Assembly: GCA_002245135.1 (NCBI GenBank)
Contig: NGBS01001186.1
Coordinates: forward strand, 62,001-97,153
Length of the DNA stretch: 35,153 nucleotides
Direction of reading: 5' to 3'
Origin: Proteromonas lacertae
Lineage: Eukaryota
In this document: in pieces, positions 3,031 to 34,104 of the stretch
Layout of the letters: every line of letters begins with the position of its first letter
How positions within the stretch are numbered: position 1 is the first letter of the stretch
Position numbers and translations under genes: made by a program
The notes under the pieces: model-generated
The model's database searches: none
What the model was told of the DNA's origin: nothing
The model's input: the letters and a program-made list of their open reading frames with translations, nothing else

Positions 3031-6000
3031 ATGGCAGATACAGCAGATGGAGTAGATTCTATTATTTTTATACTACTATCGTTGTTTTGTGGAATTATAT
3101 TTAGAATGTGTTTGAAGTGGTCGTTTGTCCCATATTCCGCAATACTCTTATTAGTGGGTGTTTTATTCTCAATTATAAGTGAATATTCATCGTATATTTT
3201 AGTAATTGTAGTTTAATATAGTTCTCTCGAGAATGTTGTTGATATTTGGAGAAACCTGAATCCTCATCTAATATTTATGATTTTTATTCCACCTTTAATC
3301 TTTCAAAATGCAATATCACTAGACTTTCATATTATTAAAAGATCGTTATTACAAATCATTTGTTTTGCATTACCTTCTTCAATTTTAACCTTTTTATTTA
3401 TTGTTCCTTTTGCATATTATGGTACTATATAATTTGATTTATCTATGAATATAATTAGTCTTGCCATACAATTGGTCAATAGCAGCATCATTTTTATTCA
3501 CTTCAATTCTCTCAATTGTTGATCCTGTAGGAATAATATCAATATTGAATAATATTGGAACTCCTCATACACTGTCATTATTAATCGAAGGTCAATCTTT
3601 ACTGAACGATGGTTCATCAATAGTTGGTTTTGAAATCTCAATGAATTATTTATTGAATAAAGAAAGTGGAATAATAATGGCTATTGTTCTGCTTATTAGA
3701 TTAGTTATTGGTGGATTATTGTTAGGAATATTATGTGGATATACAACAATATTCATAATAACCTATTTTCGTGATAAAAGTATATCATTTAATGAAATTA
3801 TATATATATATATATATATATAATAGTTGGATTTGTTACACTGACATTTGTTGTTTGTTATGGTTTATTCTATGTATCAGAATTCACAACAATTAAAGTA
3901 AGTGGAGTTATAAGTTTAGTAGGATATGGATTAGTATTAAGTAGTGAAGAAAGTCTAAGAAGTGATAAAGAACATTTATTAGGTCATTTTTGGAGAATGT
4001 TATCCTATATGTCAACAACAGTTATTTGTATTCTATCAGGTACAATTATATTCAAACATTCATTCATATCCAAATCTTTACAATTGAGAGATTGGATGTA
4101 TTTATTGTTGTTATACATTATAATCAATGTTACAAGAGGTATAATTGTAATGATATTATATCCTCTATTAAAGCATCTTGGGTATGGCATAAGCCTTAAA
4201 CAATGTGTAGTTGTAATGTGGAGTGGATGTAGAGGTGGAATAAATCTTGTTTTAGCATTAGTTGTTTCAGCAGAACATAATTTATCAAGTGATGTAAAAG
4301 ATTATGTAATGTTTCATGTTGGTGGAATTGTGCTACTTACAATGTTAATAAATGCAACTACAATGGAATATATTGTTAAATTATTGCATTTAGTGAATAA
4401 TTCTGTTTGTCAAGTTCATTTGTTTGATGAAGATGGTAATAAATTATTTCATCATTTAAAACATATTATGCATGAAATTAAAACATCTCCATTTTTGTCA
4501 TCAGCTGATTGGAGAATCGTATGGAAATATATTCCTGATTTTACATCTGATTAGTATTGTTTCTATTTATTGTTTTTTTTTTTATTTAATAGTAAAGAGT
4601 TGAGAAGTCAAAATCATATACCAATATCTCATTCAAAAGTATTATTATATCTAATATATTGTTTATATATATATATTTCTTTTTTAATAGTTGAAATATA
4701 AGTCAAATGGTAGAATAACAACAACAACAAATCCATCAAATGAAGAGAAATATGTAATAAGGAAACACTTCTTGAGATTAATAAGAGCCAATTATTGGAA
4801 ACAGATGGATCATGGTTATTTATCTAAACGTTCTTTATTACTATTATTAGAAGCAAATTCTTGTTCAGGTGATCATTTAGAAGATAAAATACATCAATGG
4901 AAATATATAGATCAAAATACTTATTTACTAAAACATTTTAATGCTATGACTAAAATACCACTCATTAAATATCCAGTTAGAAAAATAATTATTAGTTGGA
5001 TAAAATCAATTTGGGAAGTAACAAGTTCATTTTTAATTGCTCATAATCAAGTTTATAATGAATTTATTGGTAAGTTAAATGAAGAGAATATATTAAGGAA
5101 AGAAGTATATGATGAAACGAATGAAGATAGAAATAAAGCTACTGAGTTACTATCAGATATTTATTTGAAATATCCTGAGTATTTATCTGAAGTTGAAGTA
5201 TTAATATTCTTGCTTATTATTATGGAATAGAGTATTAGAGCTGTAAATTTATTTCTGTCAGTATCAAGTAATTATTATAAACACTCTTATGAAAATGGAA
5301 GTATTGATGAAAATGAACAAAAAAGAGTGAATAAACTAATACAAAAAGCAAGTTCTTTACTTTCACAAAGATATAAACAGATTCGTCCATTAACAAAAGA
5401 AGAAGTTATATCTCAATTACCCCTTCTAGCTTTTATGGATTGTGAAGATGTACAATTATCACAAATTTGCTCTGATTTACTTTCTTCTTCAAAATTATTA
5501 ACTTTTTATAAAAATGATGTAATAATTAATGAAGGAGAATTGTCTAACGGAATTTATGTAATTCTAAATGGTTTAGTTTCATTCTCTCAACAACAACATC
5601 CATATCAGTCATATCACAATGATGAATCAATGAAATCGATGAGTAATTTAAAAAGTGTGAAAAGTATAAGAGATGATAAAGATTATATTGATTTGTTCAC
5701 ATATCCAACTATTTATACATTAGATAATAATTTTAACAACATAATTCATGAAAGTATTGTTTTCTCTATTATTGTAACATATAGAGATGTTTGGTTCTAT
5801 GTCTTGTATATCTTCAAATCCAAGTTATTACACAGCCACAACTAAATCATATAAAACTGAATTGCTAATTATTCCAAAGTTAGAAGTGTTGAATATGATG
5901 AAAAATAATGAAGTGTTTGAATTAGGTTTTTGTAAGTATATTATAAATCAAGTATTAAAAAACATATATCCAGATGAATTAGAAGAATATACAGATTCTC

Positions 6001-6366
6001 AAGTATATTGTTCTCTGTGAAATTATTGTTTTTTTATATGTATAGATTCGGTTTATAATATCAAATGCAAAATTAATAAAAATAGAAAATCATCTAAGCA
6101 AACCATTGTTATCAGGTTATTATATAGTTGTATCAGGTGAAATTATTTTCGTATATAACAATAAGCCAGTTCATTATCATCCATTTGATAAATTTTTTAT
6201 TGAAAGGATTAATGATTATGAAATAATTCACACTCTTAGATTATTTAAAATTCAACTTCCAGATTTTTCAGATAAATCTCCTAGCGGGCTTTATGAGGAA
6301 GAAAATTGTAATAACATTAAACGATTTATAAGATCTCAGTCAATGATTAATATAGTTCATAAGTAG
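3031..6366 (+). CDS. CPA1 Na+/H+ antiporter, SOS1/SLC9C-like, with C-terminal cyclic-nucleotide-binding-like domain
   Basis: Multi-exon (introns e.g. 3192-3221, 3422-3458, 3780-3826). Spliced protein has NPHLIFMIFIPPLIF, SIVDPVG, LIEGQSLLNDG, VSGVISLV, WSGCRGGINLVLAL, TMLINATT, then a cytosolic region and CNBD-like VIINEGELSNGIYVILNG. Confidence 0.9.
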
Positions 6367-6559: not shown

Positions 6560-8626
6560 ATGCAATCTACGACAGCGCTAACTGTTGGGCAAGATTTAGT
6601 ATTACCTTATATTTTTATGATTTCAATCTAGAGCCAGTTGGCTGTTAATGTGCCATATATTGTAAGTTCGTTGGTTTTATTTTATAGGTTACTTCTATCA
6701 ACACGTCTGAAAGTCATTCATATGTTGTAAGGAATAAAGAAAATAACCAAGAAGGCTATCTTACTGTAATTAATTTAAGAGGGTTGGATCCAAAAGTAAT
6801 CGAGAATTTTGTATATAAATTGGGATATTATTTATCGATAGAATGAAAGCTACAAGAAGTACACTAAAGACAAAGATCATTTTGATGATCAAAACGCCAT
6901 TTATTTGCAAGCATATCAAGCAATGTTTATGATAATTCCTTACCAGTTTCAACCGCTAATATCCAAGAATTTTGATGAGTTTCAAAATAAATATCGAATT
7001 GACATTATGGAAGGAGTTGTAAACTGTTTAATCAATTTAGACGCTCAGAATATGTGTCATGGTTCATTAAACCCAACAAATATTTCAGTTCATGAAGGAA
7101 AAGACCAAAGAACTGTAATTAAGCTGAGAAATTATGGTATTTATCAAATCAGAAATACAGCTGATTTAACCTACGAAGAATGTACATTTTTAGCTCCAGA
7201 AATCATTTTAGGTCAAGAAGTAACCAGTAAAACTGATTTATGGAGTTTAGGCTGCTTAATGTATTATTTGTCCACAGGTAGAAGATTATTCCACGCAGCA
7301 AATATCAGAACCTTAGTGAACAAGATAATTAAAGCAGATTATACAATATCTTGTTATGAATGTAATGAAAAAGAGAAATCGTTAATCAGAAAATTGGTAA
7401 AAAGAGAAAAAGAAATGGATGTACGTGAGGTAAAGAACTTTGTAGAAAAAATGAAAGATGAGAAATTTGAACCAGATAGTGATGATATTACACTTGAATA
7501 CTTACGTCAAATGGCTGCACATAATGTTGTTATACCTGATAAAGAAAGATTAGCTGTAGTTGGTCAAACCCAAGGTTTGTTAGATGCTGTAATAAATGAG
7601 TATAACTCATTACAAAAAGATGATCCTAAAAAGACTTGGTTTTTAGGGTTAATATTGAATTTAGCATTTTTACCTATTTATTATGATGATATTAAAGCAA
7701 AATTAAACACCGAAGATGGAAGTAATCATCAAGCTTTATTCAGAGCATTAACAACTCAAGGAAAACGAGCTGCAGATGATGATACTGATAAAATATGTAT
7801 TGTGTTTAGTAAAATGTGCGTAAATTGTAAAGATAGAAAAGATGGTCAACCTTTGTTAATGGAATTTTGTAGGATATTACCTGCATTAACGAAACTGCAA
7901 GAATTAGAAGTTACTAGTAATAGCATCAAAGATCCATTGATGAAGTACATGGCATCTAATTTTGAGTGGAAGAATATGGAATTCTTGAGAGAAATCAATG
8001 TAAAAGGTGATCAACTTGGTCAAGATTCAATGAAATTGTTTGCTGACACTTTATCCACAGGAATTGGTCCTGAAAACTTGAGAACATTATACTTAGAAAT
8101 GAACAATATTGGAGATAGAGGTATTTCATATTTAGTATCAAGATTGGGAAATATTCCAAAGTTAATGGAATTGTTACTTGGTAATAATGATTTAAGTGAC
8201 GAAAGTGTAAGAATGATAGGTAAAAATTTATGCAGAATGCCACATTTACAGCGATTAACCCTTGGCTCAAATGCAAAGATAACTGATGCAGGTGTAATCT
8301 ATTTATTAGATCATTTGCATTATTGTCCTTATCTTACTACTTTATTCTTAAATGGAATGAAATTAACAGATGCTGTTGTTGATCCAATGTGTAACTACTT
8401 ACAAAGTAAAAAGAATAAATATATTCAGTATTTGATAATGAATAATAACGAATTGAGTGATGATGGAGCACAGAAGTTGGTTAATGCCATTGGAGTAACT
8501 AGAAAAGATAGTTGTTGTTCAAGATTAGCCATATTTGATCTTAATTCTAACAAAAATATTACTAATAAGGATAAGATATTAAGTATCTTTAAAACAGAAA
8601 AACCATGGTATCAATTTACAGTTTAA
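6560..8626 (+). CDS. Pseudokinase fused to RNI-like leucine-rich repeats
   Basis: Three short 5' introns link ATG 6560 to ORF 6905-8626. Kinase-fold motifs FLAPE and DLWSLGC are present but the catalytic motifs are degenerate (HGSLNPTN, RNYG). C-terminal repeats LYLEMNNIGDRG, LLLGNNDLSDES, LIMNNNELSDDG. Confidence 0.85.
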
Positions 8627-13105: not shown

Positions 13106-14645
13106 TTATGTAACATATTTATATATTATACGAATTAAACATCCAACTGATAATAATCTCGAAAAAAACATAATTAAATCTGTTTCATTTCTAGAGAATA
13201 CTTCTTCAACATAGGATGATATTAATGTATCTCCATCTGTTCCAGGTATTAATAATGAATTTAACAATATTATAGATAATGAAGACTGTAAAATATAAAT
13301 CAAAAAATATGATAGATAAAGTGGAAACTATGAAAACATAAATAAAAATATATAATACAATGTAAGAGAAAGGAAGTAATCTAATAAACCATCTAGGAAT
13401 ATAATTTGACACAATAATGTCATTTAAATATTCATCATCACATATTCTATTAAATGATAGTTTATCAATTGTAAATGAACAGATCATAGAATTGCTCTTC
13501 AACATTGGATGATATAAATACTCTGAATTGTATGATGAATTGTAAAATATTCCTTTATACTTTAACAATTGTAATGTTGAAATACAATGCTATTATTAGA
13601 AGAAGAAAAAATATATATATATTAATACTGATTTTTGTATATTTATTGAATTAATCAAACATATTTGATTTGATTTTGGGTTTGTACAACAACTTGAACT
13701 ATGTAATTCATCTGCTTTAATTGTATGATTTGATACTATTAATGCATAATATGAATTAATATAATAATCATCAAACACATATTGTCTATTATTTTGTGAA
13801 AATTTAATCTCACTTTTTACACTCTTTATCCAATCATTTGAATTGAGTATATTATGGTTATTGAATTTTGTAATAACATTTCCTATCATCATCTGTGATC
13901 CAATATCATTAGATGGTGTAGAAATAATCACTGCGCCATCAGATGTTTTATAGATTGGTGATATAAAATATGAAAAATAAAACAAACACAATGTACTTAT
14001 ACAACATTCTATTATATTACCAATTATTCCACCACTACATATTTGTCTATGATATTTTGATAGTTTAAATGATATAGAACTATTCATTATAATATATATA
14101 TATATATATATATACAAACCAATAACTCCATAGTAAGAGAATAATGAAATACCTAATATTGTTACATGATATATTACTCCGAAAATGTAATGACTTAATT
14201 CATGTATTATCATTGAAATAATGTAACTTATAAACAATAACAATATTTGAGATAAAGGAAGAGATGTTGAACTTATAACAACTGGGGAAAATGTGGATAC
14301 TCTAAAGATTTAGAATTATCATCAAAATATACTTATTTTCTAATGTATAATAGACTAATAACGAATTAATAACAATTGAAACACACACAAATAGTATAGG
14401 AGAACAATACAAAAATGTCCGAAGATATTTGAAGTTCAGTTGCTTTGTCTTATAATTCAATATCCTGTTGAATAATATTGTACGAATTTCTATCTTAATC
14501 TACAAAATATTATATATTTACATACCCAACTAAAATTAAACGAGAAATACTTATTTAAATGGTATTTCCTTGTTAAAATATATATAAAAACAAAGATAAT
14601 GGTAATTAATAGTAAATATATCACATAAAACCAGATAAAATTCAT
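13106..14645 (-). CDS. MBTPS2: Site-2 protease (peptidase M50, MBTPS2-like)
   Basis: Multi-exon membrane protein with HExxH (IHELSH), SGGIIGN, a PDZ-like Cys-containing lumenal insert and C-terminal LNSLLIPGTDG carrying the third Zn ligand Asp. Confidence 0.8.
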
Positions 14646-14702: not shown

Positions 14703-15750
14703 ATGTCTGTACACTCTCTTTTAATTAAAATTACTGATACAATTGAACAAGGAAAGAGAATCATCCCTCTAAATAAAGCTGAAGCAATAAACCTCTTCAA
14801 TATAGCAATAGATTCCTTAAATGACCTTAAAAAACGTAGAATAAATATAAAATAATATTAAATAGGTGAGCAAGATAGTTATGTTAATCAAAGAATAGAA
14901 ATGTTGTTAATAAGCGTAAATGAAGCAAAGTGTTATGCTAATGAATATAGTATAATATTAAGGCATAGTGTTGTATATCATAATAGAACCAATAGCGGTA
15001 CAACAAAGAGTACCAGTTTATTATCCACCAAAACCTATAGAAAACCGACATGTAAATCCTCCTACATATAATATACAATCTAATTCATATCAAAAAGATG
15101 AAAATGATATAATTAAAGACAAATTCAATAAAATACAAAATTATATAAATTTAGCCAATTCCATAATAAAAACAGATTCATTCCAAGCAAAACTATTATT
15201 ATCAAAAGCACAAAAGCTAGTAGATGAAGTATCAATAGAATCATTAAATCCAGTTAGAAATAATGTATTATCTACATATGTTGATTTAATAAAGAAATTA
15301 AATAATCAACTTCCAAAAACTCCTCCATCAAAACATAGCATAAACACTATACATCCATCATTGCAACCTCCACTATCACTACCATTTTCACAACAACAGA
15401 ATATGAATAGTATAAATATAAATGAGTATAATAGAATGTTATATCAACAAGCGAATAATCATATTGAATTAGGAGATAAATATGTAATAAATTTACCTAT
15501 AGAAGCGAAAAGAGAGTATGAAAGTGCATTAGAACTATTGCAGAATATTCAAAATAATAACTTCAATGATATAGAATTAAAATCCCAAGTGAGTATAAGA
15601 ATTACTGTAGTTATGGATAAATTAAATATATTAATAAAGCTGTTAGATGTAGAAAAAGTGAAAAATAATAATAATAATATAAATCCTCTAAAACCAAGTA
15701 ATACAAATGGATTTCAATCTGTGAGTAATAGAGTAATGCAGACTATATAA
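14703..15750 (+). CDS. Multi-MIT-like repeat protein A (about 3 repeats), paralogous to the VPS4 N-terminus
   Basis: ATG 14703 MSVHSLLIKITDTIEQGKR...; intron 14836-14865 at the same position as VPS4 intron 1; repeats such as ANNHIELGDKYV..EAKREYESALELL; Pro/Asn-rich linkers. Confidence 0.7.
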
Positions 15751-15968
15751 TACACAACATTTAAAATTATTAATTTAGATTTTATATATATTTACTTTCT
15801 TTTTAAGTATTATAAGAATTTATGTAGATTATGTTTATTATAGCACTATATATGAGGGAAAAAATGATAATTACACTTTTCATGTTGGTTTTATGTCAAA
15901 ATTGTGAAAATGGGTTAATCAAAAATTTGAAACACCCAAATATGTTTTTTTTAATTTTTTCGTTGATA

Positions 15969-17708
15969 ATGTCTTACTCCCATTATTTCCATATGATATA
16001 AATGTATTCAAGTTAAAATGTGTGTTATAGATAAAAGATCAAGTAGAAAAGAGTGATAATGAAGTAAATTTAGTGATTGAAGATAAAAATGATATTAAAA
16101 TGTTGAAAATCTTGAATATTAGCGAGATAAAACAAAAGAAAATATTAAAATTACATGAAAATAACTCGTTGTTGTTAGATTGTGGTTTACCCTTCATCCT
16201 CCATTCTAAATTTTTCATATCCACAACTATGGTGAGATTATGATATATGAAAGAGAATATTATCAGAAGGTGGTATTTGTAGTGTAATAAGTTCAGTATG
16301 TTATATATTGATGATATTGAGTGAATATGATGTCGTTGTTAGTAATTTGAAGAGTAGTAACATTGTATATGAAAGAGATGGTAATGTAAAGATATGTGAT
16401 TTAAACCTAAATGCATTAAGAAAAGAAGAAGAAATGAGAATATATGACATATGCTTTAAAAGTCCTGAAGAGTTGAATGGGTTAGAATGTGATGAAAGAA
16501 GTGTGATTTGGTCAATAGGATGTATATTATATGAAATGATAAACAAGAAATTACCATTCAATGAAGATAATGATATGAATAAAACTAAAGAGAATATTAT
16601 GAGCTGTAAATAAAGTTTAGATTAGAATGTGATGATATGATGAAAGAGATGATAGAGAGAATGTTAAAAGTGAAGAGTTTTGATAGAATGAGTTTAAAAG
16701 AGTTGGAAAAAAAATTATAAAAGTGAGTGAAATTAAAAGAGATCTAACGATGTGTAAAGAACGAACAGAAATGTTATTCAATAATTATACACTTCCATCA
16801 TTGTATCCATTTTCTCATTACCTTCAAAGTGATAAATGGGAAGAAATGAGAGATGATTTGATAAAATTCTACAATCAGAAATATAATGAAAGAATACTAT
16901 CACTATTATTGATGATGAAATTATACAAAAGAGATTATGATATGCATAATAGAATCAAATTTCATATTCATCATAAATGTAGATTTAACGGATAAAGTTA
17001 TTTAGATGAGGAGATGTTTAATATTTATTTAGATGGAGAAAGTATCATAATTGATAGAATTAGATGTTGTGTCTATGATATATCTTGTTTCTGTATGTGT
17101 GTAGAAGGTATGAATTATATCTTCAGAATATTGAAAATGATGAATCCAACACAACTGTCATTTAGTATTTTATTAATAGTAACATTTTGAATAGGAGGAA
17201 GCTTTAATCATTTGACTATTCCAAACAGATATCAACCATTATTTGGATCATCATTTGCTCAATTATCCAATCTACAAGAATTATATTTACATTCATGTAA
17301 TCTTACCTGTTATTTTATTGAATCATTTGTTAAATCAATTCCTTTCATGAAATTGAAATAGACAATCCACTTGGTCCAAAAGGCTTCAAATTGTTTCTTC
17401 CTTATTTACATTTGTTAAATAACAAAGACAATGAAATGGATCTTGATAGTATGAATTTAGATGATGAATCGATGATATTATTATCAGAAGAATTATATAA
17501 ATATCTAAATCTAAAGAAGATAAATATAACATTGAATAAAGATATTCATTCAAAAGGATTAACAGCTATTTCATCTAAATTTCCAATTTCCCAAATAGAA
17601 TGTGATATTGAAGGATATAGAAAAATATTTTCCGAAATGTGTTTATTGTATCAGCAAATACGTGTATATATGGTGAAAATCTGGAACAATTTAGATTTAA
17701 TGTTTTAA
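15969..17708 (+). pseudogene. Decayed, truncated paralog of the pseudokinase-LRR gene at 25999-29362
   Basis: Near-identical peptides (LRKEEEMRIYDICFKSPEELNGLE, SVIWSIGCILYEMINKKLPF, NPLGPKGFKLFLPYLHL), but in-frame stops (TAA 16611-16613 where the paralog has Tyr; TAA 16993-16995), deletions and frameshifts near 16240 and 17360, and loss of the 3' half. Confidence 0.85.
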
Positions 17709-17871
17709 TTGAAAAATGTTATAAAAACATGATCTGAGTTTTTGACAATCCTGTAAAAAGTATTTGGCTTGTTTTTTTAAATTCTCAATAAATATTACAT
17801 ATATAATTATATATCTATTATAAATACACACATTGCATTAATAACATTCTGATATCAGATTATAAAGCAAG

Positions 17872-19056
17872 ATGTCTGTTAATCTCCTTTTTAATCAGAT
17901 GCAAAGTCTTACAGCTAGTGCAGACCATAATTTACAAATCAATAGATCCCAACAAGCCAAACAAGAATATGTAGCAGCTTTAAATATCGTTAATTCTATA
18001 AAATGTATAGTATAGTGTGTCTAATATCATTTATAGCTTCAGGAAATATAACCTATAAAAATCTAATGCCTTCAGTAGAAGATCATATACAAAAACAAAT
18101 TAAGTTGTGTGATTTTACTAATCAGCCTTCTCGCCCATACACACCTCCTTATACCCAAAATAATTCATTTCCTGTACTTCCACCACCACCACCACCGCCA
18201 CATACTCTCCCCTCTCCTCCTCCCCCTACAGGTAAAAATTTAGATGATATTTGGAATAAAGGAATAAAATATATGAATAATGGCACAAAAGACTTAGAAG
18301 ATAATGCAATAGCAGTTGGTATTGAAAGCTTAAAAATTGCAAAAGAATGTTTTGAGCAACTGAAATGCTATTCAGCTTACTCTAAATCATTTGAATATAT
18401 TGCAACTATTGATCGAATATTACAGAAATATGATTTTACAGAGATCACAGATAAAATGAGAACAACATCAGGAAAAGGTGACGAATACTTTAAACTCCAC
18501 GAATATAAATTTGCTAAGATAGAATATGAAAAATGTCTTGATTATTATAGGGAAATTGAGGCTAATTGTATAATGTTATCTATCAGTTGTTTTTTTATAA
18601 TAGCATCAAAAATGCAAAAGTATTTATATGAAGATATGAAGAACATATATAACAAAGTAACAAAAAACTTAAAAATATGTATTTCTAAATGTATATAAAT
18701 TAATGATTATTATTTTTGTTAGATAAACCAGAGAATTCTTGTCTTCCACCACAATCGCCTGTTATTTCTCATTTCCATCATTTTAATGTTGTTTCTGCGC
18801 AAGAATGGAAGAATTTGGATGAATATTTTGCTGAATTAGAGAATTGTTTCTTATATAGGAATAAGAAAAGAGCTTTGGAGTGTTTAGAAATTCTTCAAAC
18901 CAAAATATACAAATTATCTAATAGTATATTACATATGAATTTAGCTATGAATATTTTCTAGAAAAATTAACTGAAGATGAAAGAAAAAGATTAAATGTAT
19001 ATAACGACTGTTTTAAGGCTAAAGAAAACAAATATAATATCGAATATAACTATTAA
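17872..19056 (+). CDS. Multi-MIT-like repeat protein B (about 4 repeats) with polyproline linker
   Basis: Spliced N-terminus MSVNLLFNQMQSLTASADHNLQINRSQQAKQEYVAALNIVNSIKSSGNITYKNLMPSVEDHIQKQIKLCD aligns residue for residue with the VPS4 N-terminus. Introns 18005-18036, 18568-18603, 18691-18722, 18924-18961. Confidence 0.8.
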
Positions 19057-19143
19057 TTGTACATATATATCTTATTTTTCTTGTTTTAATAATTTCAAAA
19101 ATTATAGTCGTTTCGTTTATCGTTTTTTATTTTTGTTAAAATA

Positions 19144-20633
19144 ATGGCTTTATCTGGGTTAGTTGATAAAATGGATGGGTACATTAATCGAGGTGATATG
19201 TATATTTGTTATGATAAACCACAAACTGCTAAAGGCTGTTATATAAAAGCATATGAGAAAGCAACAGAATTAGAAAGTAAATTTTAATGATATCTGTTAA
19301 TATTTAGATATGAATGAACCACATTTACATTCATATGTATCAAAATATAAATCAACAATCAAAGAAAGGATAGAACAATGTGATCATGCTCCTCCTACTA
19401 TATCTCGACCACCCAGTACTAATAGTATAATATTATAATGATTATTTTGTTATAGCGTTAAGAAGAAGTCAATCACCAACAAATTATAATAAATCAGAGG
19501 ATCCGTCACCAGATAATTTATTAAAAAATATATCAAGTATAATATATGAAGGAGATAAACTATTTAAAAAACAAAAATACAAGAAAGCTCAAGTGAAATA
19601 TAAAGAAGCAAGAACTGAGTGTTTAAAACTCTTATTAATAATAATTCCTGATGCAAAATACAAATATCAGCTTGATGATTATATAAACCAAATGAATAAC
19701 AAAATAGAAGAATGCTTAGCTCCTCATATGAAATATACTGTAAAATCATCATCATCATCAAAATTACCATTATTAAGAGGATCTACTGCCAATTCAAAAT
19801 CATCTAACGGTTCATTATTATTAGAAGATTGTAAACCAATACAAAATGAAGAAGGAAGTGATAATATTGATGAATTGAATCTGTCAAATAACAGCGATAA
19901 TAGTGATACATATTTATTACCATCTTTAACAACTGTTGCTGGTGTGTTTTACAATGGTAAAAAGTTAATTAGAAAAGCAAATTATTTTGAATCAAAATTT
20001 AGATTTCATGATGCTGCTGTTTGTTTAAAAGAAAGTGTAAAAGTGATGCGACCATTGATAATAAGAGAGTTAAAAAATCATGAAAAAGAACCACTATGTG
20101 ATTATATTAGTCAAAGTGAATTAAAACTATCAATGTTATCTTATTATCCACCTGTAGAATCACAAAAAGATATGTTAAGTAAAATAGAATTATATATTAG
20201 CCATGGTGATTTACTATTATCATTAATTGATCCAATAAAATCATATTTAAATTATAAAATAGCTTTAAATATAGTAGATGGATTAACAAATTATGTAGCT
20301 GAAAATGAAGAGAAATCTTTAGAATGTGTGTTAAAAGATGATATAGATTTGAAAAGAAAAGATGTTCATTCTAAATTAGATGAAATAGATATAATAAATC
20401 AGTTGATAAATCATGAAACAAATGCAAATAATAACAGAATCTGTGATAGAGATGAAGCAATTAGAGAATATATGAAAGCTAGAGAGCTATGTATTAAATT
20501 GGAAGAATATCGTATATTGTTATATGTATTATTATTTGTTTAAATAGATCAAGTTCAGTTAGATGATCCATTTCTGGTAGAAATATTGAATAAAATAGAA
20601 TATTTTGATAATATACTACTCACTATAAATTAA
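19144..20633 (+). CDS. Multi-MIT-like repeat protein C (about 5 repeats)
   Basis: MALSGLVDKMDGYINRGDMY..AKGCYIKAYEKATELE..IEQCD; first intron 19277-19307; further repeats (IYEGDKLFKKQKYKKAQVKYKEA; YISHGDLLL..YKIALNIV); last intron 20512-20547. Confidence 0.75.
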
Positions 20634-20751
20634 ATAATCTAATTTATTTTTGACAATTTTTGTTTAAGATAAAGAAAGTGTAAAATTTTCTCAAGCCAAA
20701 CTTGATCTTATTTTTTTTATTTTTGTTATTTTTACTATACAGTAGTGGAAT

Positions 20752-22190
20752 ATGTCAGTTAATACTCTTTTTGATAAATTACAAAGCTTAAAGGCTAGTG
20801 GCGATCATTATTTTCAAGCAAATAATTTTAATGAAGCCAAATCGGAATATAAAAAAGCATTGAATATAGTTCAGATAATAAAAGGTATATTTAATTATAT
20901 TGACAGTAAAATAGATACAAAAAATCAAATATATTCACAACATATGCCAAGTTATGAACAACAGCTAATTGCTCAAATAGAAGCATGTGATAAAGGTAGG
21001 ATTCCAGTTGCAGCTCCAGCAGGTGGGTGTGGTGATGCATATGGAAGAGCACAAGGAGGAGGTGGAGGAGGTACAAATTCTCAAACCGATGAACTTGAAG
21101 GAATGGAAAAGCAACTAGAAAGTCAAATGACAAAAGTAGAAGGTTTGAAATGGTCTAGTATTGCTGGATTGAAAGAAGCTATAAATTCCTTACAAGAAGC
21201 TATTGAATTACCACGAAAATACCCACACTTGTTTACAGGTGATAGAAAGCCATGGAGTGGTATATTACTATATGGTCCACCTGGTACTGGTAAGTCATAT
21301 TTAGCCAAAGTAGTAGCAAGTGAAATACAAGGTTCATTCTTCTCAATTAGTTCATCAGATTTAGTATCAAAATGGCAAGGTGAATCTGAGAAGTTAATTA
21401 GGTCATTGTTCTCATTAGCAAGGAAGAAAGCACCTTCTGTTATATTTATTGATGAAATTGATTCAATAGCAACAGCAAGAACTGAAGTATAGAAAAAAAT
21501 ATATATATATATAATAAATAGGGTGAAAATGAAGCTTCTAGACGTATTAAAACTCAATTATTAGTGCAAATGCAAGGTGTAACAACAGATTCAGATATTA
21601 ACCACAGAGTTCTAGTACTAGGAGCAACCAATGTTGTATATTTATTAATATTATTATTATAGCCTTGGGAAATTGATAGTGCTGCAAGACGTAGATTTGA
21701 AAAGAGAATATATATTCCATTACCTGATGCACCAGCTAGAACTGAATTATTTAGAATTCAATTGGAGAAAATGTGGCATAATTTATCACCAGAACAAATT
21801 AACGAATTAGTTCTAAACACTGAAGGATTTTCTGGTTCTGATATTGCTACAATGTGTAAAGAAGCTGCTATGCAACCAGTAAAGAGAGTTTCTGTATTTA
21901 TTTCTTATTAATTATATAGACAACTACATATTATAGATATTGTAATATTGAGAATCAAGTCATATATTTACCTTGTGGTCAACAAGGAGGAAATGGAACT
22001 AAGACATATGATAGTATGACACAGGAGGAAAGAAAGAGAATATATGATTTCGTTTCTTTTGTATATTTATGTGTATTATGTCAATTAGGGTGATTTTACT
22101 AATGCTTTGAACAGAGCTAGAAGAACAGTTAGTCAAGATGATCTTAAACGTTTTGAAGAATGGACAGCTGAGTTTGGTATTCAAGGATAA
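20752..22190 (+). CDS. VPS4: VPS4 AAA+ ATPase (ESCRT-III disassembly)
   Basis: N-terminal MIT-like domain; [95 protein letters not shown]-terminal [12 protein letters not shown]. Introns include 20885-20914 and 21487-21521. Confidence 0.93.
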
Positions 22191-22413: not shown

Positions 22414-24453
22414 ATGGATTACTTTGGAGAATTTCTAGATTCCAAGACAGTGAAGCTGTTTCTAAATAGTAATGCAGATCAAAATAATTCTAAAGTATTA
22501 TTTGGTTATAATATTTTAGTCTATATCTATTCGTGACGGAGATACATTAGACAATATAATTCATCTTGCTTCAACAAAACTTGGAATAGAAGTTCAATCC
22601 TTGTTTACCGAAGTAGGAGAAAAAATAACTGATCCTACTTACATAAATGATGGAGATAAAATAATCTGTTCGAAAGATAATAAATTCCGAAAACAAACAC
22701 AAAGTATTAAAAAGTGTAAATATAATATAATAGAAAGTCGTTTTCCTTATGTACAAGGATATGAAGTAGTTCAGATCTTAGGTAAAGGTGCATTTGGCCG
22801 AGTTTACAAAGCAAAGAGATTATTATCAAATGATTTTGTTGCTTTGAAGTTTCTATCTAAAGCACATATACACAAGCCGAAGGATGTAGCTCGAATATTC
22901 AGTGAGATGGTTTGTTTACAAGCAATTCAACATGAAAATGTAGTAAAATTCTATGGAAATATCGATACAACAACTGATACAATTTTAGTAATGGAATATG
23001 CTGGTGGTGGTGATTTGAAAGAATTTATGAAACATTATGGTGGAAGATTAAGTGAAATAGATGCAGGTAAAATATTTCGAGAAATGACATTAGGAGTATC
23101 TTATTTTCATCAACATAATATTATTCATTGTGATTTAAAATTAGAAAATATATTACTATCTGAAGAGTATATATATATATCCTATTATATATATATATAG
23201 TGGTCATGTTAAAATTACTGATTTTGGTTTATCTTCATTCTTAGCAGCAGGTCGAACAACTAAAAGCACATGTGGCTCATTAGCTTATCTACCACCAGAA
23301 GTGTTGGAAAAGAAAGGAAGCGAAGGTCCTCCTAGAGATATTTGGGCTATGGGGATTATACTATATCAGATGATGTATGGTAATTTTCCTTGGCCTTCTA
23401 CCACAGTACAGGAATTAGAAAGTAATGTGATTTATTCTGATGTTATTTTTCCTACTGATATTCCTGTTTCACAAAAATGTAAAAGTTTAATTTCATTAAT
23501 ATTAAACAAAGATCCAGAGTATATATATAATTATAATTATAATATAATATAGTAAAAGAATAACAACTGCTCAAATATTAGTAAATGCATGGTTAAAAGA
23601 TGCAGCAAATACTTCAGAAGGTGTAGAGACAAATAAAGATGAAACAATTTTCCCAAGTGCTTCAGCAATAATGTATATTAAATTATTATTATATTTTATC
23701 GTAGTGATAAATTGAATAATAAGCATAAAGAACAACATTCATCTTCTCAAAGTCCACCTTCTACATCTGTAAATAGTAATTCTCTCTCCATTCATCCATC
23801 AAGATTACCACCATTAACACCAATTACACCATCAATATTAAGACCAATCTTACAAGAATGGTTAACTGCAAATATAATTATAAATATATTTTTATATTTC
23901 AATTCACAAAGAAAAAGAAAACTACTAAAACCAATAGTAACTCCAATTAAACCTCCTCCAATTCAGACTATTAATTTTCACAACAGTCCTCCTTTATTCT
24001 TACAGAAAAGAAGTGCTTATTTATATGATAGTCCTGTTCCATCTCCTAGTAATAAATCAGTTACATCTACACGTAGATCAAGATCAAGTTCAACTGCAGA
24101 AAGACCAAAATCACATTCATTAACTTGTCGAGAAAGTTCGTTCAATTTTCCTAGTTTAAAAGATAATGAAACTATTGATTTAAAGAGAGTTAGTATGCCT
24201 GAGTATTTGCCTCAACAACAAACATCAGCTAGATTTCCCAATTTTAAGAATAATAGTAATAAACCAGCATCTAGAAGAAAAGTTAGGCAGGCGCAACAAC
24301 AACAAGGGATGAGAACACCTCCTAGAGTATATATATTTTTTAATTGTTTTTTTTATTGAATAGAGTCCTAAGCCTTCAAAATATATTCCTTCTGCTCCTC
24401 CAATTTTTGGTCCTCCAGGTGTAAAGAAAGATATAATTAGTTTTAATTTATAG
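22414..24453 (+). CDS. CAMK-group (AMPK/MARK-like) Ser/Thr kinase with N-terminal DCX/KHA-like ubiquitin-fold domain and Ser/Pro-rich tail
   Basis: GKGAFGRV, VALK, HCDLKLEN, ITDFG, TCGSLAYLPPE, DIWAMG across short introns. N-terminus DNIIHLASTKLGIEVQSLFTEVGEKITDPTYINDGDKIICS fits the DCX/KHA-like pattern. Confidence 0.85.
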
Positions 24454-25998: not shown

Positions 25999-28900
25999 AT
26001 GTTACCATCAGATTCAGAAGTATTTCGATTGACTTATTTTATATAGATAAAAGAAAGAATAGAGAAGAGTAATTATGAAGAAAACTTGGTCATTCTACAT
26101 GAAAATGATACCAAAATGGTTAAAATATTTAATTTGGATGGAATAAAAGAAAAGAAGATTTTAATATTCTATGAAAATCACTCCTTGCTGTTAAATTGTT
26201 GTAATTCCTTTATTTTTCCTTATGACGTTGTTCAGATGAATGTTGAAAGTGAATATATGATAATTTCTCGAAGATATTATTCAGGAGATTTAGAGGAGAT
26301 AATCCAGAGTAAATCCTTATCAGAAGGCGATATATATAGTGTGATATGTTCTTTGTGTAATAATCTATTGATTTTGAGTGGTTATGATTTAGTAGTAGGT
26401 AATATGAAGAGTTCTAATGTGGTATATGATGTAAATGGTGATATAAAGTTATGTGATTTATTCTTGAATGAGTTGAGAAAAGAAGAAGATATGAGATTGT
26501 ATGATATATGCTTCACAAGTCCTGAAGAGTTGAATGGATTAGAAATGAATGAAAAAAGTGTGATTTGGTCAATTGGTTGTATATTATATAAAATGATAAA
26601 CAAGAAATTACCTTTTAAAGAAGATGATAATATGATGAAAACAAAAGAGAATATTATGAGATGTAAATACTCAGCTGAAGAAAAGAAAGATAACAGAATA
26701 ACAGAATTGTTGAAAAATATATTTATGATAGATAATAATAAAAGACTTAATATTGAAGAGTTGAATAAATGTTTAATGAAAGAAAATTCAATAAAAGAAA
26801 ATTCAAATCGATTGTTATTAATAGAGAATGAAAGAAAAAATATGTTATATAATAACGATAAAGAATTGTTATACTATCCAACCTTATTCCAATCTGAATA
26901 TTATATTAAAAACTGGGAATATGGAAGTATATAACACATACATATATTGTAATATAGATAAATTTCTGTTTATATTATTGTCATACAATTACAATAAAGA
27001 TGATGAGATTCTTTCAATACTGTTGAGATTAAAATCCTATTCAAAAGATGTTAAAATCAAAAATCTAATAAATTATAAATATTATCACAAATGTAAAAAC
27101 AATTCAGGATGTTATTTAGATGAAATGATATTTAACATTAAAATTAATCAAATTAATGAAATATTTATAGAAATCAATTCAGACTGCATTTGTTTATGTG
27201 AAGAAGGAATTGCTTATTTCCTCAAAATAATGAAATTAGTCAATCCTACAAAAATTGAATTTGGTATATTTCTAATCATTATTATTTATTTAGATAAGAT
27301 GAAAATTCCAATCCATCATCAGTCATTATTTGAATCATATTTTTCTCAAATAACAAATCTAGAAGAATTGGATTTATCAGGATGTAATCTTTCTTCTAAT
27401 TTCATTGAATTATTTGTTAAATCACTTCCATTAATGAGATTAAAACATGTTGATCTTTATGGTATTTATAATATTGTTTTTATTGTTTTGAAATAGATAA
27501 TCCAATTGGCCCAAAAGGATTCAAATTGTTACTTCCATATTTACATCTAATAATTAACGAGAGTAATGAATTGAATCTCCAAAAGATGAGATTGAATGAT
27601 GAATCAATTGAGTTATTATCAGAAGAATTATCCAAATATCCAAATATTACAAAAATAGATGTTAGAAATAACAAAAACATTCATTCCAAAAGATTAAAAG
27701 TTTTATTTTCCATATTCCCTGATATATACTGTGATCCATACAAAGAACTGCTAATTGATCAGACAATAGGAAATTTAAATAATTTTATAGAATTATACAA
27801 TGAAAGTATAATTAATAAACATGCTCAATATCCAACGAAGTGTAGAACTTTAAATTTGAGTAATCTGTGTATCGATGATGTTTTTTTCAAATCATTTTTT
27901 TCATTAAGATCAAATGAATTTAGGGATATTTATTGTTTATATTTGAATAGTATATTTTGATATTTTTAAATTATATAGATAATCAATTAACATATGAAGG
28001 TATAAAAATACTGATTAACAATTTATCTTTATTTTCAGATTTTATGGAGATTAAAATATATGGAAATAATATAGGAGATGAAGGAATGAGATTATTATCT
28101 CCACATTTAAAGTTTTTAGAAGATTATTATGAAATAATTAATTTTTCGAGTATAACATTAATTATTGTAATTAATTTTGAATAGAAATGGGATTATCTTC
28201 AACTGGATTGAAATACTTATTAGATGATTTAAAAACAGTTTTTAGAGAAGGATATCAAAGAATCACACTTGATATAAGTGATAATAATATTGATTCAGAT
28301 GGAATAGAATATTTAATGAAGTATGTTAAAGAAGAAGATAATATAAAAAAGTTCTACATTCATAGTATATTATTATATTAAGTCTGTTTTATTCAACAGA
28401 TAATCCAATTGGTAATTTAGGATTTAAATTATTATTATGCAATTTATGGAAATTACCTAACAATCTAAGTAATATCTCAATAGATGATGATGGTGTGGAA
28501 CTATTAGTGAATGTATTTGATAAACTTATAGAATGCAAAACAATAATTTTATATGGAAATAATATTAGAATGAAAGGGTTGAAATCTATATGTTCAAAAT
28601 CCATTTCAAATTGGGTATATCCTTTTATTGCAATGAAAAGTCAATCTTGGACAAATCAAGAATTGGAATATTATTTGAATTATTGTATTGAAAAGGAAAG
28701 AAGAGAATGTTATGATGAGGATAATTATGGTTGGTGTGATAATTGTAACAAAAAGAAAGGGAAATATTACATAAAATTTGATTTTTCAAGTATATAGTTT
28801 ATATTAAATTGAAATAGATATGAATATTAATGATTTTCATATATCACTAATTAAACAGATAGATTATGATATACTTGATTTATCAAATAATAGAATAAGT

Positions 28901-29362
28901 TACAAAGGATTAGAAGAATTGGTGGATTCTTTACTAGGATATCATTATGTATACATATCAATATTCAGTAATGAAATTGGAGATGAAGGAATAAAGATAA
29001 TATGTGATTGTTTAGAACAATTTGTTGAAAGAGATGGAAAAAGAAATCCAGTATCATTAAATGTATCAAATGGAATGACTGAAAATGGATTGATATTGTT
29101 AATAGAAAGATTAAATGATTATCAATCATTACAAAAGATAAATCTATCAGGAAATGAATTAAATGAAAGAGAATTGAGATTAATTATAGAAAACAAAGAT
29201 ATATTTGAATGTTTAGATGAATTTTTAATTACTGTAAAAGATGATGTATCAGAATTAGAATTATTTTTAGAAACATTCTCAACAATTGCAACAATCAAAA
29301 TAAATGGAATATCAGATGAAGAAAAGAAAGAATTATCAAAAGAATTCTTCAACATAGAATAA
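25999..29362 (+). CDS. Pseudokinase fused to a long RNI-like LRR array (multi-exon)
   Basis: Kinase fold with degenerate catalytic loop (VVGNMKSSN) and DLF in place of DFG, plus SPEE and IWSIGC. Many LRRs (NPIGPKG, NNIGDEG, NNIDSDG, NEIGDEG), separated by introns that often fall just before the repeat Asn. Confidence 0.8.
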
Positions 29363-31154: not shown

Positions 31155-34104
31155 TTATTTTTTAGATTTATCAAAACAACGATGTTCCAATATCTGTTTA
31201 GCAGATGGTCTTTTATTAGCTTCCTTCGTTAACATCCAATCAATCAACTGTTGTAAATCAGAAGAGTAGTATTTAGGAATTCTTGTAGTTTTACTACTTC
31301 TAATAGCAGTAACTAAAGTAATCATATTGTTCCCAGTAAAAGCAGATTCTAAACAACACAATTCATGTGAAATACAACCTAATCCCCAAATATCTACCTT
31401 ATTATCATATGGTAAGTTTAAAAACATCTCTGGAGCCATATATAATGGAGATCCAATAACTGTTTTAGCCTTTTGATCAGGTCTAACCGCAGTAGATACA
31501 CCAAAATCACCTATTAAACAAGCATCATTATCATTTAAAAAGATATTAGCTGGCTTCATATCACGATGTATAATATTCTGTGAATGGAATATAGTATAAA
31601 CCTAATGCTACACATTGTATATAATATAATATCAACTGTTCTTTAAAGTAAGATCTGAACTTATCTCTTTGAATATTGATCTTCTGTTCTAAGTCTCCCT
31701 TTGAGCAATATTGCATTACTAAATATATATTCTTTTCTTTAGAAAATCCATCAATATAATGAACTACATAGGGTGAGTTTAATCTCTTTAATATTGATAT
31801 TTCTGATTCCATCATATCTTTAGATTTCTTATCAATTCCTTTGGTTGACATTTCCTTCATTACATAATATTGTTCTTTAGATGAGACTAAATATACTTTA
31901 CCCCATGATCCACTACCTATTTCTTTTAATATATGATACTTTTCTGGTTCAGTAAACATACTAGACATTGCATCATTACCTATCTTTATTAACTCACTAG
32001 CATTTGGTCGATTCTTATAATTCTTTGTTAAACTTAAATCTATTAATTTCAATATACCAGGATTAACATCTCTACTTAATTTAGGATAAGATTTAGTAGG
32101 AATAACAGATTGTAATTGTAACAATGTACCAGTAAATGGTGGTTTAAATTCGCATAGTTCATACAGTATACAACCTGCAGCCCATATATCAACACGTTGA
32201 TCATAACTATTTCCTTCATACATCTCAGGTGACATATAACTTGGTGAACCTATGGTTGTATGAGTTAAATTACCTTCATCGAGGGTTTTAGCAACACCAA
32301 AGTCACCTATTATACAGTCATTAACATGGTTTAAGAATATATTTTCAGGTTTTAAATTACGATGGATTATTCCTAATGAATGGATATATTCGATTCCTTT
32401 TAAGAGTGATAAGAACAGTCTCAATATTTCTTTATCATCTAAATCATCTTGTTTTGATCTAGCAGTTTGAATTAGGTGTAATAAATCACCATTAGCACAG
32501 TAGGATGTTACTAGACATATATATCCTGGTATTGCAAATACATCAGTATATTCAATCACATTTCTATGATGTAATTTTCTTAATATTTCTAACTCCTGGA
32601 ATATCATCTTTTTAGCATCTTTTGATAGATTTGTATACATTATTTTCTTTAATACTTTAATGCCTTCACCTCTATCTACTGTATAAAGTGTTGATGTACG
32701 CTTATCTGCAATACAGGCTTGTATTTTATATCCTTTTGATTCAATACTATTACATTCTTCAATACCTCTTCTTTGGATTGAATTTCTATTGTTATATTGA
32801 CTGGAATTATTATTATTATTATTTGAATAATTATTATTTGAATTATTGGAGGTTTGTATTAATACAGGTTTAACGTTTGGTGTATTATTATTAGAATTAT
32901 TGTTATAAACAGTTTCTGGGGATTTTTGAGGTGAAAAATCTCTACTAATTGTTGATTGACCAAATTGAACCCATTCATTTAAATAGTGTTTAATATAAAC
33001 CAAATATCGATTATCACTATCTTTTACAAATAATTGATATAAAGAAGATGAATAAAACTGATAACCTACAGCTACTAATGAATAAAATAATAAAGTCAAA
33101 GTGTCATATTCACACTGTTCTTTACCCCATATTTTATATCGATCACTGTAGTTATTACTATGTTGAAATAATATATTCGCATTAGCTACTTTAGGTTCTG
33201 TACCGTAATATAAAAATATTATTCTAAGTACTTTTCTGTAAGTATTCATATACTTTTCATTCTGTTTGAACTTGTCAATATCTTCCGGTTTAGTTTTGTT
33301 ATAAACTGATGGTAGTAATGCTTTAAACATAGATCTATGAGATCTTAACCAGTTGATATTATGATATTGTCTTAGAAATACATTGATAGTAACCAATGGT
33401 TCGTTTTTATATTGCATTCCTTCTTTACCTTCATAGAGATTAAATATATTCATTTTTTGTACGATATCATCACATACTTCATTGAGATTATCTTCTTCTT
33501 GGTTATTGTGTAGTACCATTGTATTTTTCTTACTATCTGTTGGTTCTACATCGTAAGATTCACATCTCGATTTTGGAATTGGTGGTAATATTGGTGTAGA
33601 TTCTATATTAGCTGTTGCTGGAGATGATATGATGTTCGATGCTTCTTCTAATAAGATCGGATTCTCTGTTTCTTGACCTTTCACTGCCATTGCACTTTCA
33701 CGATGTTTTTTAACAATTTCTGGACCTTTTACTGTATAAGGCTCACTTTCACTCTTAGCATAGTTTGATGCCTTAAGCGGAACAGATGAATTATTGTTAC
33801 TTTTCTTCAAATCGCTATTTTGAGATTTTTTGAGTGGTGGTTTATCTGGTGGCACTTCTGAATTTTGTCTACTATGCAATGTGACATAATTTTGGTTGTT
33901 TATATTGGATTTTTTTATTTCTTCCAGAGAACCTTTTGTTACACGGTTATTATTATCTAAATTCCCTTGATTATAATCCAGATAATGTAAACTATTCTAT
34001 GAAACAGTAATTACACAAAAATACATGTGGGCTTCGTGTCAAAGGTGCTGAAGGTATTGTACTTTTCTATGACATAATAACATAATTTATTATACAGAAC
34101 TCAT
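31155..34104 (-). CDS. Tandem NEK-like kinase (pseudokinase plus kinase), interrupted by a 1-nt frameshift
   Basis: ATG 34104 with introns 34067-34095 and 33997-34024 leads into ORF 31561-33879. Two NEK-type domains (GDFGVA/S, IGSPxYMxPE, VDIW); the second domain continues in ORF 31155-31559 after one extra base at about 31586-31589. Confidence 0.85.

Follow-up and report, generated by a model that had tools for sequence, protein, structure and literature searches.

Proteins of repeated MIT-like modules encoded beside VPS4 in Proteromonas lacertae and their probable descent from the VPS4 N-terminal domain

We analysed a 35,153-nucleotide window of Proteromonas lacertae DNA (contig NGBS01001186.1 of assembly GCA_002245135.1, positions 62,001 to 97,153 of the forward strand), in which VPS4 is accompanied by three genes, here called A, B and C, whose products carry repeated three-helix modules. 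We found that A, B and C make up a real, conserved and lineage-restricted family of VPS4-derived multi-MIT proteins. Sequence comparison, shared derived residues, an ancient intron that recurs in internal modules and a MIT-like model of the VPS4 N-domain give good support to the view that their modules descend from the MIT domain of VPS4; that they act as ESCRT-III binders is a suggestion. If true, MIT-only proteins with three to five MITs, born traceably from VPS4, would be a natural experiment on the origin of ESCRT regulators, and such arrays would show whether multivalent tail binding alone controls filament lifetime. The conserved intron also offers a way to recognise MITs too diverged to reach profile thresholds, which would otherwise be annotated as TPR.

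All four genes lie in the same orientation (+), with start codons at 14703, 17872, 19144 and 20752, as the initial annotation had listed and the open reading frames (ORFs) confirm. Introns and splicing are predicted from sequence throughout. Gene A (14703..15750; 326 aa, three MIT-like modules) has exons at 14703-14835, 14866-14949 and 14987-15750. Gene B (17872..19056; 348 aa, four modules) has phase-1 introns at 18005-18036, 18568-18603, 18691-18722 and 18924-18961, and gene C (19144..20633; 463 aa, five modules) has phase-1 introns at 19277-19307, 19425-19455 and 20512-20547. VPS4 (20752..22190; 430 aa) has introns at 20885-20914, 21487-21521, 21636-21662, 21894-21919 and 22061-22088, the final two picked by agreement with other VPS4 proteins. 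A, B and C contain no AAA domain and three, four and five three-helix modules respectively, which bears out the composition first proposed for them; in B and in C the final module is followed by no more than a few residues. The spacing from B to C and from C to VPS4 is about 90-120 nucleotides (nt). Of the single cluster initially described, B, C and VPS4 are contiguous; A is set apart, because a gene of the kinase-leucine-rich-repeat (kinase-LRR) type (about 16000-17740, +) intervenes between A and B. Other splice sites for B and C were rejected, as they yield truncated proteins. Fusion of A with the downstream kinase was also rejected: splicing 15733-15778 meets a stop within 22 codons, and the relative of A terminates at the same residue as A.

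The four genes share the position of their first intron. Each has 44 open codons after the ATG followed by a GTA donor at +133 (14836, 18005, 19277 and 20885), and the first introns of A, B, C and VPS4 (30, 32, 31 and 30 nt; GTA..TAG; 10-25% GC) are alike in length and ends. Offset 133 was the commonest intron-like offset in the window, with five matches against a mean of 0.35 per offset (842 plus-strand ATGs, offsets 60-250); four of these are A, B, C and VPS4 and the fifth (16846) is unrelated. Stops or the reading frame make the first intron obligatory in A, B and C; in VPS4 the corresponding stretch has no stop and keeps the frame, and its intron is therefore inferred rather than forced. 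The nine introns in A, B and C share phase 1, and a phase-1 intron between helix 2 and helix 3 recurs within the internal modules B3, B4 and C5, which the initial annotation had missed. Denoting the N-terminal module of VPS4 as V1, the intron lies 15-17 residues past a conserved helix-2 Ala in V1, A1, B1, C1, B3, B4 and C5; in canonical VPS4 the distance is 16. Among 80 public VPS4 loci, a recognisable MIT was present in 69 (52 unbroken, 3 cut by contig ends and 14 internally interrupted), and 12 of the 14 interrupted MITs are split by a phase-1 intron within the codon that follows helix 2. Many of the 52 unbroken MITs are probably transcript-derived, and two loci (L036 and L037) are near-duplicates. 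Several of the public loci contain in-frame stops that would be typical of the ciliate code, and one appears to resemble animal VPS4.

By its sequence, the fourth gene is VPS4 rather than katanin, spastin or fidgetin. It matched the Pfam families AAA (2.6e-27), AAA_lid_3 (2.8e-11) and Vps4_C (2.6e-11). Its Walker A and B motifs, aromatic pore loop and arginine fingers are all intact (residues 165, 196, 222 and 282), and its beta-domain region can be aligned to plant VPS4. Searched against the PDB, exon 4 scored 74.6 bits with Vps4, 63 with katanin, 59 with fidgetin-like and 57 with spastin. The median identity of its AAA part to 28 full-length VPS4s was 0.62, compared with 0.72 among them. Its MIT domain (20752..20997, +) is divergent: the median identity to the MITs of 28 other VPS4s is 18%, where theirs to one another is 42%. 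Downstream, the MIT-AAA linker (21000-21090, +) is Gly-rich, with a run of six glycines. Against a 47-sequence VPS4-MIT profile the N-domain scored 8.6 bits, which 2 of 500 shuffles reached. A model of this domain, made with the neighbours' modules as alignment and including 10 intron-coded residues, had a predicted local distance difference test (pLDDT) score of 87.9 and three helices of 20-26 residues. MIT domains occupied 14 of its best 15 Foldseek rows, and its best match in VIA was an archaeal Vps4 MIT (Z 12.2, root-mean-square deviation 1.6, 73 residues aligned). Taken with the profile score and the shared intron, the VPS4 N-terminus models as a MIT domain lying below the Pfam threshold.

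The N-termini of the three neighbours align to VPS4, as had been claimed from the letters. Over the first 72 aa, B is identical to VPS4 at 36 of 72 positions without gaps (z 27) and C at 17 of 72 (z 7.5), and A gave z 5; the A-B and A-C comparisons were not significant pairwise (z about 1). Module B1 (17872..18119) is thus 50% identical to the VPS4 N-domain, and exon 1 matches at 88 of 133 nt. The other first modules are A1 (14703..14948), split by the helix2/helix3 intron at 14836-14865 (phase 1), and C1 (19144..19390), with its intron at 19277-19307. Further along A lie A2 (15100..15312), followed by a conserved LPKTPP linker motif, and A3 (15421..15645), a profile match that is conserved in the relative. 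B2, a weak module, adjoins B3 without a linker (18228..18727), and B3 holds the intron at 18568-18603; B4 (18788..19029), also weak by sequence, is split at 18924-18961. C2 (19500..19724) is a profile match, and the close-set C3-C4-C5 (19923..20630) are the most conserved modules (82-88% to the relative), C5 carrying the intron at 20512-20547. With a leave-one-gene-out profile, no more than 1 of 300 shuffles scored as well as the real module for nine of the 12 in the neighbours; B2, B4 and C3 were indistinguishable from shuffles in this test. C3 compared with C2 gave z 8-10, and module pairs were mostly at z under 3. A six-frame scan of the window found the module only inside A, B, C and VPS4.

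We compared the modules with the local VPS4 and with 47 canonical VPS4 MITs. B1, C1, B3, C2, A1 and A3 score higher against the local VPS4 N-domain than against any canonical MIT, A2 ties, and the remaining five are not closer to the local VPS4. The near-invariant Ala16 is replaced by Gly in 8 of the 13 window modules; in canonical MITs this position is Ala in 46/47 and Gly in 0/47. The module profile aligned over its full length with the 47-sequence VPS4-MIT profile (82 columns, P 7.9e-5). The family very probably arose by tandem duplication of the two-exon MIT unit of VPS4 and subsequent repetition within each gene, a process helped by the uniform phase 1 of all nine introns. VPS4 is widespread and carries the ancient intron, so the direction from VPS4 to its neighbours is the simplest, and B1, being so close to V1, may stem from a later duplication or conversion. 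The derivation from VPS4 initially proposed is therefore kept in its essentials and amended in its unit, which is the two-exon MIT domain and not a single exon.

Relatives were sought among 1.84 billion protein representatives, and 150 matches were listed. Among these, A is matched by P0206 (60%, exon 3), B by P0146 (68%) and C by P0124 (79%, exon 3), representing clusters of Logan proteins with 2, 11 and 15 members. Similarity to the relatives collapses at predicted intron borders, and the ORF of the B relative ends two codons past the start of intron 2 (18568-18603), which is in frame. Module identity to the relatives is 59-88%, with its peak in C3-C5, and modules are more conserved than linkers. 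That A, B and C are no more than non-functional remains of duplicated VPS4 copies, as the degraded look of the neighbouring kinase-LRR copy might invite one to think, is extremely unlikely: all exons are open, relatives exist at 60-79% identity, and both the excess conservation of modules over linkers and the drop in similarity at intron borders speak against it.

With the C alignment as query, a metagenome scan gave no locus; the scan with VPS4 gave 80 loci, of which none encodes relatives of A, B or C. Seventeen public loci extend for 1.5 kb or more ahead of the VPS4 MIT, and none of them contains another MIT distant from it; over 348 kb of public loci the sole match of at least 12 bits to the module profile was a VPS4 MIT. 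All 15 gene C relatives lie on contigs of 1.7-2.5 kb, and B relatives on contigs of up to 7.9 kb; the short C contigs suggest either that assemblies break at set places around C or that the genes are ordered differently. The initial search for VPS4 homologues was dominated by two-domain CDC48 proteins. A search with VPS4 residues 1-125 gave no match among 99 candidates of 134-429 aa, and one with residues 56-245 listed no close orthologue, the best identity being 71% over part of the AAA domain. One possible cause of a missing VPS4 orthologue despite relatives of A, B and C is that short ORF calls fell below the length window.

Several results weigh against reading the modules as MIT domains. 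Against Pfam MIT (PF04212) the best score was 14.2 bits for a cut-off of 30, the best E-values were 0.05 (P0124) and 0.79, and no module or exon reached the cut-off. TPR Pfam families outscore MIT in the modules, and searches of the PDB and of the 1.84 billion proteins with the module profile bring up TPR arrays for the most part. Signal against canonical VPS4-MIT profiles is confined to V1, C5, C1, A3 and perhaps B2. Exon 3 of C, the only neighbour modelled, gave in a single-sequence model three-helix units at C2 and C3 with a poor pLDDT of 45.6 and generic fold-search matches. For the VPS4 copy, the only confident model, all Foldseek E-values were 0.12 or higher, and the best VIA rows were tied within 1, the ties including two designed proteins that are not MITs beside the Atg1 and calpain-7 MITs (ranks 2 and 4). 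All four genes have the 133-nt phase-1 first intron on which the initial annotation relied; in A the exact length is partly coincidence, because a one-residue deletion in the helix1-2 loop is offset by an intron one codon later. The ESM Atlas named no family at 0.9 or above except TPR for V1; for P0124 its only named families were KATNA1_MIT (0.80) and MIT (0.79), which is a lead only. Comparison with P0310 by a single-sequence profile gave a weak result.

The modules might accordingly be TPR-type or generic helical repeats, their likeness to VPS4 having come from convergence or from TPR replacing MIT, as the success of TPR families and TPR proteins over MIT in the sequence searches would suggest. 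We regard this as very improbable. The TPR matches lie mostly over helices 1-2 (profile positions about 8-45 of 75), where the hairpin fits the TPR consensus by sequence; all module scores are below the TPR gathering thresholds, mostly with one stretch per piece. The modules differ from TPR proteins in a period of about 70 aa rather than 34, in helices of 20-26 residues with a long third helix, and in forming separate bundles joined by Pro-rich linkers. The likeness of MIT to the first three helices of TPR is established (PMC13413365). Moreover, the intron is the ancient VPS4 MIT intron and B1 shares half its residues with the VPS4 N-domain, and for V1, B1, C1, B3 and C2 a TPR identity is already largely refuted. 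Three independent lines favour MIT over TPR, namely the intron position, the VPS4 N-domain model and the profile-profile match. The MIT assignment of the initial annotation stands for the VPS4 copy by its model, and homology of the neighbours' modules to a VPS4 MIT is shown by the profile tests and the intron position, with B2, B4 and C3 weak; these modules stay below the Pfam MIT threshold, with TPR profiles higher.

We then considered the peptide-binding grooves. MIT domains bind the MIM tails of ESCRT-III in several modes, through the helix2/3 or the helix1/3 groove (PMC9477494), and in VPS4A the substitution V13D blocks MIM2 binding and L64D blocks MIM1 binding (PMC11218997). These positions were mapped through the VPS4A-like sequence P0007. 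The V13-equivalent in the MIM2 groove is Lys in the window VPS4, a residue found there in 0/47 canonical MITs. It is hydrophobic (I/M/F) in nine of the 12 neighbour modules, being Thr, Ser and Glu in B1, B3 and C5, and the hydrophobic residue is kept in all five such modules that could be checked in relatives. At the L64-equivalent in the MIM1 groove, VPS4 has Ile, and A2, A3, B2 and C5 are hydrophobic in the preferred register. This pattern suggests that VPS4 kept MIM1-type binding and that most neighbour modules kept the MIM2-type groove. Judged from these residues, there is about an even chance that the modules still bind ESCRT-III MIM peptides, mostly through the helix1/helix3 (MIM2-type) groove. 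Three observations count against retained binding: the L64-equivalent is polar in five of nine placeable modules (B1, B3, C1, C2 and C3), with a helix-3 register ambiguous by one turn; canonical VPS4s themselves vary at V13 (A, E or G in 8/47); and some MITs bind non-ESCRT-III partners, as in ULK1/2-ATG13 (PMC9477494).

Whether A, B or C could also contact VPS4 was judged from their linkers and tails. The LPKTPP motif after A2 (15310-15336, +) is exact in the relative of A, where other linker residues vary; it is absent from C and from the relative of B. It resembles a MIM2 motif. A predicted complex of the VPS4 MIT with this linker scored 0.02, which speaks neither for nor against an interaction. 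Nine exon pieces, searched up to E 1, listed no Pfam family of the VSL/Vta1 type, and the known VPS4-recruiting elements (a VSL domain, a clear MIM1) were not found in A, B and C.

On balance, A, B and C could well be multivalent binders of ESCRT-III tails built only of diverged VPS4-MIT copies, a role to which we give an even chance; with neither an enzyme nor a VSL match in any of them, multivalent occupation of tails is the likeliest function. One A, B or C protein would occupy several ESCRT-III tails at once without recruiting VPS4. Filaments might thereby be held or cross-linked, and access of VPS4 limited or timed, or VPS4 outcompeted. A fuller scenario, which we find doubtful, is that the MIT of VPS4 lost its MIM2 groove and that the arrays of three to five MITs budded from it now read MIM2-type tails, as a lineage-specific layer that cross-links filaments and gates their disassembly.

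Two other functions share the same origin. The modules may have turned to new, non-ESCRT peptides of autophagy, kinase or cytoskeletal partners, as the MITs of ULK1/Atg1 and NRBF2 have. They have diverged among themselves (mostly z under 3) and each is conserved in its relative (59-88%), which suggests that each has settled on a specificity of its own; they show an eroded R66/E68 signature, and the tandem MITs of ULK1/2 bind ATG13 and apparently not ESCRT-III (PMC9477494). Since the source is VPS4, a protein whose MIT binds ESCRT-III, nine of 12 modules keep a hydrophobic V13-equivalent and B1 remains half identical to the VPS4 MIT, we think such a switch somewhat unlikely. The proteins might instead be adaptors like Vta1 or Vfa1, with modules on ESCRT-III and a linker or tail motif that recruits or stimulates VPS4. 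Tight linkage to VPS4, the exact LPKTPP of A with its presumed MIM2 likeness, and the 82-88% conservation of C3-C5, as expected for a surface binding a conserved partner, would all suit an adaptor. The missing VSL-type family, the absence of the motif from C and from the relative of B, and the Lys at the MIM2-groove position of VPS4, which should disfavour binding of the motif, make it quite unlikely. A binder or decoy is favoured over an adaptor because no known VPS4-recruiting element was found.

The proposed tail binders can be set beside known MIT proteins. VPS4 itself (MIT, AAA, beta-domain and Vps4_C) is matched by the fourth gene with its catalytic motifs intact; A, B and C retain its intron in their modules and differ in lacking the whole AAA cassette and repeating the MIT three to five times, and the local VPS4 MIT is unusually divergent. 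Closest in proposed working would be Vta1/LIP5, an enzyme-less protein whose tandem MITs bind ESCRT-III tails (PMC9477494; PMC5141497), to which the linker-less B2-B3 and C3-C5 may compare; Vta1/LIP5, however, has two MITs and a VPS4-binding VSL, whereas the window modules are closest to the local VPS4 MIT and gave no Vta1/VSL match. ULK3, CAPN7 and ULK1/2 (Atg1) likewise pack two MITs in tandem without a linker, as in B2-B3 and C3-C4-C5, but they carry a kinase or protease with their two MITs, and A, B and C have three to five and nothing else. NRBF2, MITD1 and Spartin, among the top Foldseek rows for the VPS4 N-domain, use MIT as a peptide-binding module outside an AAA ATPase; they combine one MIT with another domain and are old families, in contrast to A, B and C, whose relatives were found only in one close lineage. 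The tandem-MIT proteins of a human survey have two MITs plus an enzyme or VSL domain (PMC9477494). In the literature on Blastocystis ESCRT, lineage-specific MIT expansions and proteins with at least three MITs, as far as the accessible texts go and with most subscription journals outside the search, no such array is described, and the available part of PMC10936438 mentions no multi-MIT arrays.

The window as a whole is gene-dense and eukaryotic, with the standard genetic code, 22-33% GC per kb and introns of about 26-38 nt. Short introns, low GC and standard code are similar in Blastocystis, where introns of the human subtypes are nearly all 30 bp and, in isolates from tortoises, GC is 21-23% and the stops are canonical (PMC12129017). 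The kinase-LRR gene between A and B has 65-72% DNA identity to a copy at about 26000-27750 and shows a frame change and stops where that copy stays open, which may mean that it is decaying. On inspection, neither copy has the usual HRD and DFG motifs, and both are likely pseudokinases. From ORF translations, more kinase and leucine-rich-repeat genes lie at 6842-8626 and 26047-29362 (+), and the family looks expanded in the genome. Divergently transcribed from A is a membrane protein (13206-14410, -) with an HExxH motif and no relevant Pfam match at E 0.05, which we assume may be a site-2 protease. At 3455-6366 (+) lies what we take by eye to be a Na+/H+ exchanger with a cyclic-nucleotide-binding-like tail. 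Directly downstream of VPS4 (22520-24359, +) is a protein kinase with a weak N-terminal doublecortin/ubiquitin-like match, and a gene at 31155-33996 (-) seemingly has three kinase domains per reading unit, NEK-like by eye.

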